This document shows, piece by piece, positions 49,761 through 60,614 of a DNA stretch of 64,000 bases. This stretch comes from a virus. Its lineage: Duplodnaviria > Heunggongvirae > Uroviricota > Caudoviricetes. Made by a program: the position numbers and the translations under genes. How positions within the stretch are numbered: the first letter of the stretch is position 1; each line of letters opens with the position of its first letter. The notes under the pieces are model-generated. The model saw only the letters and a program-made list of their open reading frames with translations. It was not told the DNA's origin and did not search any database. Location: the IMG/VR virus record IMGVR_UViG_3300031414_000001, positions 304,437 to 368,436 of that record; one strand, written 5' to 3'.

Positions 49761-49829
49761 TTCTGTACCCTCATTGATTAAGAGATAGTACTATATCATA
49801 CCGCTTCGTTCCCGTCAAGGAAAATTTAG

Positions 49830-49906
49830 TGCAAGGGGATGGACTCGAACCATCGACACGGAGTTATACTAAGATAATCTTGCTCTACCGTCTGAGCTAC
49901 CCTTGC
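49830..49906 (-). pseudogene. tRNA with aberrant enlarged anticodon arm (TAG-like loop)
   Basis: perfect acceptor, D and T arms; 21 nt instead of 17 in the anticodon arm. Confidence 0.65.
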
Positions 49907-56473: not shown

Positions 56474-56580
56474 ATAGTGTTTGGTGAGAAAGGTTCAGGC
56501 TACCTTGAATAGAATACAGGACTTAAGTGCAAGTTGCTGAACTCTTACACACCCTCATTTCATCGGTTCTTTCTCATTTG

Positions 56581-56653
56581 TGGCTCATACCAGATTCGAA
56601 CTGGTGTGGACAGAGATTTAGAGTCTCCCGCTACGCCTCTCAGCTAATGAGCC
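56581..56653 (-). tRNA. amber suppressor tRNA (anticodon CUA)
   Basis: intact cloverleaf GGCTCAT/ATGAGCC, GGAGA-CT-CTA-AA-TCTCT, canonical T arm. Confidence 0.92.
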
Positions 56654-59207: not shown

Positions 59208-59774
59208 TTATTTAGGTAAAGAGTTTAAGTACCTCTTACCCGCCTGGATAAGTTTCTTCTTTTTGATTTTAAAAGAAGTACTATCCTGTCCACCAAACAT
59301 TGTACAGTTCGCAAGGATTTCAGCCCAAGCAGTTATATACAGAGTAGGTGCTAAAGGATCAGTCCAGATAGTATCAAAGTCTTCTGACTTAGCCATATGG
59401 AATGTCATATCTTTACGCATCAATTCTGAAATAACTGATTCTTCAGGAAATAGGTGCATCCACACATCAGCACTAACATTAGCGTGGTCGGGGAAGTGAA
59501 CCTTTCCTTCGTCATCAACAGTACGACACAATGGTTTACCACAATCATGATATTCTTGATAACGCAGTACAATATCATCTGGCAGAATCTTATCTTTGAT
59601 TTTGCCATATACTTCAAGAAGTACAGGATCGCCCTATCCAGTATCTAATTCAGAGATCAGTACTTTATACTGTTCCTGAACCATAAGACCATGTGCGTGA
59701 ACACTAAGACCTTTCATCTGTTCGGTAGTCTGCATTACATGAAGTAGTTCTTCGAAAGTGTTAGGATAAATCAT
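59208..59774 (-). CDS. HD-domain phosphohydrolase-like protein with in-frame TAG (codon 47)
   Basis: ATG 59774 overlaps upstream stop; VHAHG...TAG(59634-59636)...YHDCGKP...HFPDHA..S. Confidence 0.75.
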
Positions 59775-60115
59775 TTAGCACCTCCGCGAAACAATTGAAA
59801 TTTCTTGAAGATACTACGCTGTTCAGCGGTTACTGGAGCACTAGCAAAGGCAGTAAAGCCATAATCCCAATCAGGTTCATGGAACTGGACAAATCCAATA
59901 CCAGAATCTTTGAGTTCATCATATGCTTTTTGTAACTTATGTTTATTCTTACATGAGATAACAATCAGAGAACTAGTCTCAGTACTGTTATTTTCGAAGG
60001 CCAAGCCGCTTTCATAAGCTGCGTGGTTTGATTGTACCACAATTTGTTCTAACGGTAAGTCCGTGCGAACAAATACGTAGATCCAAGTTTTTTCATTCTA
60101 GTGAGCCATTTTCAT
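59771..60115 (-). CDS. PTH2-like peptidyl-tRNA hydrolase with in-frame TAG (codon 6)
   Basis: GAGGAA-ATG AAA ATG GCT CAC TAG AAT...WIYVFVRTDL...VQSNHA...FHEPD..TA. Confidence 0.75.
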
Positions 60116-60360: not shown

Positions 60361-60614
60361 GGCCGTTGATAGTGTGTTATTACACCAAAGTCTCTAAGGG
60401 TCTATATTAGCATCTACTACAGAAGTCGCACCACACGCCCTTCTTATAATATCAGATACACGCCGCCCGTGTGTACCAAACTAATATAACTGTATCCGGT
60501 CTTTTCTTCCCCTGAGCTTATACGTTGGTACTAAGTGGTGTATTTTCCCATACGGATCGCTCTCGACACTCTTTAAATGATGGCTACCTTTAGGCCAACA
60601 TCCTAACAACGGTC
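60361..60614 (-). ncRNA. ~254-nt RNA containing a 23S rRNA H43/H44 (L11-binding) mimic
   Basis: terminal stem GACCGTTGTTAG/CTATCAACGGCC; AGGATGTTGGC-CTAAAGGT-AGCCATCATTTAAAGAGTG. Confidence 0.7.

Follow-up and report, generated by a model that had tools for sequence, protein, structure and literature searches.

Genomic setting of the RNA locus

The window, by which we mean the whole stretch of 64,000 nucleotides analysed here, is part of a complete virus record of 370,971 bp. Its relatives at approximately 87% identity are Xanthomonas phage XbC2 and Erwinia phage Kaldavass, with GAP32, CBB, BF, and fHe-Yen9-04 at a greater distance, and the source phage and all of these are Rak2/GAP32-like jumbo phages. 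The feature of interest is a non-coding RNA on the minus strand that is present as one copy in the complete phage genome. It was noted that the window contains 28 tRNA genes, all 28 on the same strand as the RNA, the closest being about 2.65 kb away, and that the direct neighbours of the RNA are small ORFs. A 65-aa ORF lies upstream with its stop codon about 10 nt before the RNA start, and a 66-aa ORF is the first gene downstream, 12-13 nt separating the end of the terminal stem from the GAGGAG ribosome-binding site. No family was found in a Pfam search of the neighbour ORFs in the window, and a promoter and terminator scan around the RNA gave nothing usable, including no separate promoter. 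The phage genome was found to hold no genes for L11 or L12, while a search for L10 returned one sub-threshold hit (E 0.018) that was not convincing.

The original prediction had placed this RNA just upstream of amber-gated PTH2 and HD genes. Two ORFs (59771-60115 and 59208-59774) are indeed located just downstream, and each requires readthrough of one TAG to stay open. However, the 66-aa ORF is the one immediately downstream, the PTH2-like Pfam hit of ORF 59771-60115 lies below threshold (E 0.005; 17.4 bits where 23 is needed), the search gave no HD domain, and the neighbourhood is not common to the relatives. A tRNA with anticodon CTA, of the amber suppressor type, is encoded at 56580-56653, 3 kb downstream of the RNA. 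At 49829-49906, ARAGORN also recorded a tRNA with a four-letter anticodon (ttag) and an unassignable amino acid, which may be a quadruplet or odd-loop suppressor.

The two ends of the RNA match the GTPase-associated centre of 23S rRNA

We compared the RNA by blastn with the real E. coli rrlH sequence (L001) as the 23S reference. Minus-strand positions 60604-60570 were found to match 23S 1054-1088 at 31 of 35 positions without gaps (E 3.5e-8), the four differences being U1065C, G1068A, A1070G, and C1072U. The H43 loop has the same length as in 23S, A1067 is kept, and GAGU follows at 1087-1090, so that the match given in the original prediction was reproduced exactly. By binomial arithmetic, the chance expectation of such a match is about 5e-10 in 128,000 positions. 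A scan of the region with Rfam 15 returned no LSU rRNA match. The predicted terminal stem was also recovered (CCGUUGuUAG / CUAuCAACGG, 60612-60603 with 60372-60363) and is referred to as P1.

The H44 half had to be relocated. It had been assigned to CGTATAAGCTCA at 60524-60513, beyond an insertion of about 42 nt, but the GCUC of this segment pairs with GAGC at 60562-60559, and this pairing covaries in relatives. In addition, CGUAUAAGCUCA as an H44 half would break the base triple at 1072 through its C...G, a U1072 with C-G combination that was seen in none of the 115 cores among the matches listed. With a 1.1-kb query, the RNA stretch was the sole part that aligned to Acinetobacter phage ME3 and Xanthomonas phage XaC1, in unannotated gaps of their genomes, and these two phages share a 3' block (UUUGGYGUAAYARCACAC) followed by the complement of the 5' flank. 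Because these unrelated jumbo phages share that block, which corresponds to 60389-60373 in the window, the true H44 copy could be located at the 3' end, as GUGUAAUAACACA at 60385-60373 on the minus strand (23S 1091-1103). The insertion is thus 178 nt long. The segment GUGUAAUAACACACU is identical to 23S 1091-1105 at 12 of 15 positions, with two of the three mismatches forming both sides of the compensated pair 1092-1099, and its hexaloop GUAAUA (60378-60383), closed by U-A and G-C, is that of E. coli.

The elements of the RNA therefore follow the order H42-like stem, H43, UUAAAGAGU, insertion, UUUG, H44, and stem (Table 1). No rRNA sequence flanks the copy, and the 58-nt domain is interrupted by the 178-nt insertion rather than continuous. 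We conclude that this is a non-coding RNA of approximately 255 nt whose 5' and 3' ends together rebuild the uL11-binding, GTPase-docking part of 23S rRNA, down to a base triple.

Table 1. Elements of the RNA and its insertion domain, in window positions.
Feature	Position	Strand	Evidence or remark
Structural core	60363-60612	-	within RNA-library contig span 60358..60619 (262 nt)
P1 5' strand CCGUUGUUAG	60603..60612	-	pairs with 60363-60372; last three pairs correspond to H42 1053-1055
H43 copy (23S 1057-1081), 9-nt loop CUAAAGGUA, A1067 at 60591	60577..60601	-	helix 1057-1064 / 1074-1081; 31/35 identity over 1054-1088
Junction UUAAA (1082-1086) and GAGU (1087-1090)	60568..60576	-	1082-1086 covariation
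Insertion domain, 178 nt, in H44 5' strand between 1090 and 1091	60390..60567	-	covarying helices Pj, Pa, Pb
CGUAUAAGCUCA: 3' side of internal loop, Pa 3' strand, and A103 (60513, first base of Pc)	60513..60524	-	GCUC/GAGC covariation
UUUG and true H44 copy GUGUAAUAACACA, A1095 at 60381	60373..60389	-	12/15 to 23S 1091-1105
P1 3' strand CUAUCAACGG, then CCUUUUAAUU	60363..60372	-	pairs with P1 5' strand
Pj, 3-bp closing helix	60565-60567 / 60390-60392	-	GUC/GAC, AUC/GAU, UGC/GCA, UUC/GAA, UCC/GGA
Tandem purine-purine pairs G.A and A.G	beside Pj	-	insert architecture
Pa arm, conserved internal loop GAUC / UAUAA	60559-62 / 60514-17	-	compensatory changes
Pc arm, AGGGG/CCCUU	60509-13 / 60396-400	-	conserved 15-20-nt loop between Pc and Pb
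Pb, 8 bp UAUAUUAG/CUAAUAUA	60481-88 / 60403-10	-	covaries
Two distal hairpins	beyond Pb	-	insert architecture

The RNA belongs to a large phage family

We assessed the distribution of the RNA with sequence patterns taken from its two halves. An 18-nt pattern from the 5' half detected at least 119 viral stretches, and a 3' pattern detected at least 120 further ones. Anchored extraction among the matches listed gave 69 distinct members from the 5' scan and 83 canonical-length members from the 3' scan. As 47 of these 83 lack the 5' pattern, their 5' halves provide an unbiased sample. Pooling both scans, at least 115 distinct cores from viral contigs share the architecture, and the window fits the family order at every element (P1, H43, UUUAAAGAGU, helix-closed insert, UUUGG, H44 with A1101, and P1'). 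The 3' pattern was also searched in genomes of 185,579 species (596 Gb), giving 99 matches. The 5' half was present in 20 of these, most of them from MAG contigs with a few from Bacillota isolates, and was absent from the other 79, which is roughly the chance expectation (about 140 by our estimate). From this comparison, the family is essentially viral and rare in cellular genomes.

A close association with tRNA genes was noted among the matches listed. Of 90 family contexts, 67 have tRNAs at a distance of 3 kb or less, and all 327 of those tRNAs are on the strand of the RNA. Among the 69 members listed from the 5' scan, P1 has a median length of 11 bp, and in 29 of them a tRNA lies 30 nt or less away from it. 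Clustering of the ORFs in approximately 3 kb around the RNA (3.0 kb upstream and 3.4 kb downstream) across the 90 contexts revealed no conserved partner protein; the clusters obtained were all lineage-restricted, apart from scattered HNH-like ORFs. Likewise, the Rak2-type protein gave no alignment with the small proteins encoded upstream in ME3 and XaC1. Rfam 15 gave only chance-level hits on the RNA region (gathering score; E <= 10) and only tRNAs on the loci of four relatives, and full-text literature searches found no description of such an RNA. The RNA is a member of a large phage-specific family that has no Rfam 15 model and no description found in the searchable literature.

Covariation and conservation point to a probable rRNA-like fold

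The helices of the core were examined for compensatory changes among the 83 members listed. Pair 1058-1080 occurs in all four Watson-Crick types (UA 44, AU 18, GC 17, CG 2), pair 1054-1105 as GC (49) or AU (33), and pair 1092-1099 as CG, UA, or UG, while the outer pairs of P1 can be of any sequence. The tertiary pair 1082-1086 was found as UA in 54, CG in 15, and AU in 12 members, with 2 non-pairs; it is U-A in the window and A1082-U1086 in XbC2 and pEa44. The covariation across related phages that the original prediction called for is thus present in both helices and tertiary contacts.

The most specific of these contacts is the triple of 1072 with the pair 1092-1099. In real rRNA, this triple was reportedly defined by covariation between C/C-G and U/U-A in work of the Draper laboratory and of Gutell. 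Among the phage cores in the matches listed, C/CG was recorded 73 times, U/UA 33 times, and U/UG 8 times with one exception, so that 114 of 115 are consistent with the triple; no shuffle among 100,000 reached the count of the 69-member set. U/U-A is carried by the window, L061, and fHe-Yen9-04, and C/C-G by XbC2, pEa44, GAP32, and CBB, such that the window and the 87%-identical XbC2 differ at all three triple positions. The two states are interspersed among insert types, and on a tree built without the triple columns position 1072 changes approximately 26 times. Four of these changes fall on well-supported branches and all four are matched by 1092, though with this number the sign test is under-powered (p = 0.125).

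Conservation of the core appeared to be uneven among the 83 members listed. U1060, U1066, G1071, A1077, and A1085 are invariant (83/83), while A is retained at 1067 in 60 (72%) and at 1070 in 66 (80%), and the window itself has G at the rRNA-invariant A1070. The H44 loops among the matches listed include GUAACA (22), GUAAUA (15), and others, and A1095 is not kept throughout. As in rRNA, position 1061 is free to vary (PMC6239185). In the same source A1070 is invariant in rRNA yet has no tertiary contact, and the tertiary fold is required for uL11 binding (PMC6239185).

Energy calculations did not favour the rRNA-like fold. When constrained to it, the RNA reached -46.9 kcal/mol against a free MFE of -62.7, a difference of about 16 kcal/mol in favour of another fold under the nearest-neighbour model, and the single-sequence MFE was no better than that of shuffles (z = -0.02). 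These values lend no support to the fold, but they would not be surprising where Mg2+ and tertiary contacts hold a domain together. An alternative from RNAalifold on seven close relatives, pairing the H43 5' strand with the H44 region, was rejected, as 1058 varies and its proposed partner A1101 is invariant in the family. Considering the sequence match, the helices, and the tertiary covariation of the rRNA type together, the RNA very probably adopts the three-dimensional fold of the rRNA. The initial proposal of a phage RNA mimicking the GTPase-associated centre is thus strongly supported, with the H42 base, H43, the 1082-1086 pair, H44, and the triple all present and covarying across the family.

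The insertion domain

The insert of the window is of a three-way-junction type, which defines a subfamily comprising the Rak2-like phages, ME3, XaC1, and several uncultured phages. Compensatory changes were seen among relatives in Pa, Pb, and P1, and the Pa strands alone occur as GAAC/GUUC, GGAC/GUUC, GAGU/ACUC, GUGAC/GUCAC, GUUGA/UCAAC, and GUGG/CCAC. Across the family, insert lengths range from 23 to 354 nt among the matches listed, and the insert is always closed by a helix that abuts GAGU and UUU. The first three insert pairs are formed in 67, 67, and 64 of the 69 members listed, compared with 21-41 of 69 when the partner strand is slid. A set of larger members of approximately 410-430 nt (L004:6882-7305, L007, L011, L016, L020, L053, and L089) carries in the distal insert an exact 13-nt sarcin-ricin loop, UAGUACGAGAGGA, equal to 23S 2653-2665, and in these members a tRNA starts within a few nt of the 3' end. 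No copy of this loop at 2 or fewer mismatches was found in the source phage genome.

Some further resemblances were noted within the insert. The loop GGGGAAGGAC-AGUACAGU (window 60489-60508), which is also seen in ME3, L014, and L117, resembles 23S 1036-1047 (GGGAAGGCCCAG, the 5' strand of H42) at 10-11 of 12 positions in relatives, a similarity that is not significant (E 5-43). Within this loop, CGGAU at 60498-60494 could pair with AUCCG at 60557-60553 of the Pa loop, and close relatives do not compensate. Other rRNA-like stretches were discarded as chance-level (E > 0.2), including GCUCAGGGGAAG...GACCGGA against the sarcin-ricin region and GGGAAGGAC against 23S 1036-1047 in relatives. The hairpin ACACG-GGCGG-CGUGU (60456-60476), antisense to 16S 1393-1406 at 13 of 14 positions, was also set aside as chance-level, with 36 of 200 shuffles matching as well and a stem that varies in relatives.

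Presence in RNA libraries

The stretch was present in assembled contigs of two metatranscriptome libraries from different studies, for which DNA carry-over is possible. In run X7, prepared from rRNA-depleted RNA, a 309-nt contig covers 60358-60619 with no mismatches and at a depth above that of the adjoining contig. Its ends lie 3-6 nt outside the terminal stem, which is a weak hint of the RNA ends. In run X11, contigs bridge both borders of the RNA. The contigs thus place the stretch in RNA libraries, with a hint that its ends lie near P1. It was also observed that the run X7 contig joins 60358 back to 60619 through 17 nt, CCCAGTTTTTTTGGGAC (plus strand), that are absent from the phage genome; this end-to-end joint could stem from a circular RNA, from a tandem copy carried by a strain, or from a cDNA artefact. 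A very high depth at 60567-60604 in run X6 was rejected as phage RNA, being due to true rRNA contigs that cross-match with 3 mismatches.

Comparison with known RNAs

The nearest counterpart is the bacterial GTPase-associated centre itself (H42-H44, E. coli 1051-1108), which includes the 58-nt fragment that binds uL11 and thiostrepton. Both share H43 with its 9-nt loop, the 1082-1086 pair, the H44 hexaloop, and the 1072/(1092-1099) triple, with U1060, G1071, A1077, A1085, and A1088 kept and 1061 free. At 1087-1090 the phage RNA has GAGU where E. coli 23S has GAAA, GAGU being the usual bacterial sequence at these positions. The phage RNA differs in lying outside any rRNA, in having a generic 10-bp stem in place of H42, in the A at 1101 that is paired to a U of a new UUU tract, in the 178-nt domain between 1090 and 1091, and in the relaxation of A1067 and A1070 across the family, with G1070 in the window.

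Autoregulatory leaders of ribosomal protein operons, such as the L10 leader (RF00557), are likewise non-ribosomal RNAs that imitate a protein-binding site of rRNA. They are loose mimics in the 5' UTR of the cellular operon that they regulate, whereas the phage RNA is a near-exact copy of a tertiary domain, is not upstream of a ribosomal protein gene, and matches no Rfam model. A further group of structured non-coding RNAs, namely ROOL, GOLLD, and the stable non-tRNA RNAs of the T4 tRNA cluster, lies in or beside phage tRNA arrays, a setting that is common in the present family. The ROOL and GOLLD models gave no match to it in the region or in the loci of the four relatives, and none of these RNAs is known to us to copy a functional centre of rRNA. 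To our knowledge, no virus encodes a stand-alone copy of such a centre. The synthetic 'ribosome-in-pieces' constructs are also related in concept, as Munishkin and Wool 1997 reportedly describe isolated thiostrepton and sarcin-ricin RNAs that keep ligand binding. Those are laboratory constructs, while the phage RNA is a natural, conserved viral gene, and the member in the window holds a copy of the thiostrepton domain only. What distinguishes the family is a copy of an rRNA centre that is precise enough to reproduce a ribosomal base triple and is widespread in large phages.

Possible roles of the RNA

The reading to which we give somewhat better than even weight, judging from sequence conservation, is that of a stable, trans-acting phage RNA that binds host uL11 as a free-standing mimic of the GTPase-associated centre. 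Its 5' and 3' ends would meet to form the H42 base, H43, the 1082-1086 junction, and H44. Since uL11 recognises exactly this fold, the RNA would be expected to bind host uL11 off the ribosome. Binding could withdraw uL11 from ribosomes, blunting for example the uL11-dependent stringent response, or could form a small RNP imitating the stalk base; the response of RelA, which depends on uL11 and on the thiostrepton loop, is one candidate target of interference (PMC5829649). As tRNAs are close by and on the same strand in most relatives, the RNA would there be transcribed as part of tRNA operons and excised by tRNA-processing enzymes. Small ORFs flank it in the source phage, and there it probably shares their transcript and is trimmed up to the long terminal stem. 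More tentatively, and with less confidence than we place in uL11 binding as such, the RNA may be a tRNA-operon passenger that acts as a working copy of the centre, its RNP with host uL11 disarming the uL11/RelA stringent alarm or neutralising immune toxins directed at the centre.

The pattern of conservation bears on which ligand would be involved. Nucleotides that define the fold are invariant, while A1067 and A1070, and to a lesser degree A1095, are relaxed, which favours an uL11-binding mimic, or selection on the fold itself, over direct binding of factors. For L10, no case can be made from the H42 part, given its shortness and variability. Several observations count against the uL11 reading, including the insertion that breaks the 5' strand of H44 and might clash with the uL11 footprint, the tens of thousands of ribosomes that would have to be stripped, and the doubtful benefit for the phage. 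The G at the rRNA-invariant A1070, the energetics, the under-powered sign test, and expression seen only in contigs weigh in the same direction.

The main rival, which we consider unlikely, is that the RNA is a decoy or competitive inhibitor of a host or competitor factor that attacks the centre, for example an ADP-ribosyltransferase or nuclease toxin of abortive infection, so that ribosomes would stay active. Countering RNA-targeting defences is a proposed role of phage tRNAs, and members of the family commonly lie among such tRNAs. An activity of this kind exists in Tre23 of Photorhabdus (Enterobacterales), which ADP-ribosylates 23S H44 at 1095-1098 and impairs the GTPase of EF-G (PMC8661411). 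Conservation of the H44 loop is good across the family, where GUAACA and GUAAUA predominate, and the window has the E. coli loop, while the L004-type relatives add the sarcin-ricin loop, another classic toxin target. However, A1095 is not strictly kept, the source phage lacks a sarcin-ricin copy, and no defence system is known that targets the GTPase-associated centre. A stoichiometric decoy would also perform poorly against a catalytic toxin with tens of thousands of ribosomes per cell, and damaged rRNA could not be replaced by a decoy in the way that cut tRNAs are by phage tRNAs. A still less probable reading is that the RNA, alone or together with uL11 and the L10-L12 stalk, directly binds translational GTPases (EF-G, EF-Tu, IF2, RF3), or RelA and tRNA, in the manner of a 'ribosome-in-pieces', and would in this way reprogramme translation or the use of GTP. 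EF-G is reported to be bound by isolated thiostrepton-domain and sarcin-ricin-domain oligoribonucleotides (Munishkin and Wool 1997, PMC24907), sarcin-ricin RNA binds IF2 and EF-G (PMC3496166), and in the RelA complex A1067 stacks on the A/R-tRNA elbow (PMC5829649). Some family members carry both centres, and A1067 and A1095 are present in the window. Even so, conservation within the core is lowest at the factor-contacting positions, the L10-carrying part of H42 is cut down to a generic stem, and the source phage has only one of the two centres.

A role in cis, as an uL11-sensing leader for the downstream 66-aa gene or as a protective or terminating structure of the upstream operon, appears very improbable. 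The short spacing to both flanking ORFs, the CCUUUUAAUU that directly follows the stem ahead of GAGGAG, and the lack of a separate promoter would fit such a role. Against this, the upstream ORF is kept in the Rak2-like phages but the downstream gene differs among XbC2, pEa44, GAP32, and CBB, which counts against leader function, and the ribosome-binding site is outside the structure. In most of the family it is tRNAs, not ORFs, that adjoin the RNA, and the RNA of ME3 has its own large terminator-like hairpin. The remaining explanation, a functionless fragment of host 23S rDNA, would account for the high identity over 35 nt and is effectively refuted by covariation, so that we give it almost no weight. 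Compensatory changes extend across very different phages, and the positions at which the RNA departs from enterobacterial rRNA include compensated ones. A conserved structured insertion divides the domain, and there is no surrounding rRNA sequence or LSU rRNA match.

If the RNA binds uL11 or other ligands of the GTPase centre, it would represent a new phage route to manipulate translation, the stringent response, or ribosome-directed immunity, and in the case of an RNP a new class of RNA-based takeover or anti-defence device copied from a tertiary domain of rRNA. It would also offer a natural, evolution-tested minimal scaffold of the thiostrepton/uL11 site that tolerates insertions of 23-354 nt at 1090/1091. 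These ideas are testable in the culturable relatives GAP32, CBB, BF, XbC2, ME3, and fHe-Yen9-04.

Further variation among family members

Several family members showed individual features. In ME3 (L002:1840-1990), a long perfect inverted repeat, CACATAAGGATGCTAATAGAA...TTCTATTAGCATCCTTATGTG, comes after the RNA, and its terminator-like form suggests that the RNA is a stand-alone transcription unit in that phage. In the viral contigs L149, L184, L203, L208, and L210, the 5' half breaks off behind GCAGCCA, which would fit a second insertion within the 3' strand of H43. A cluster of ORFs of 171-576 aa as read, some of them cut at the locus end, was encountered approximately 1-3 kb downstream of the RNA in L009, L010, L019, L062, and L072, and, judged by eye, these may be RNA-binding proteins of the Ro60/TROVE type.
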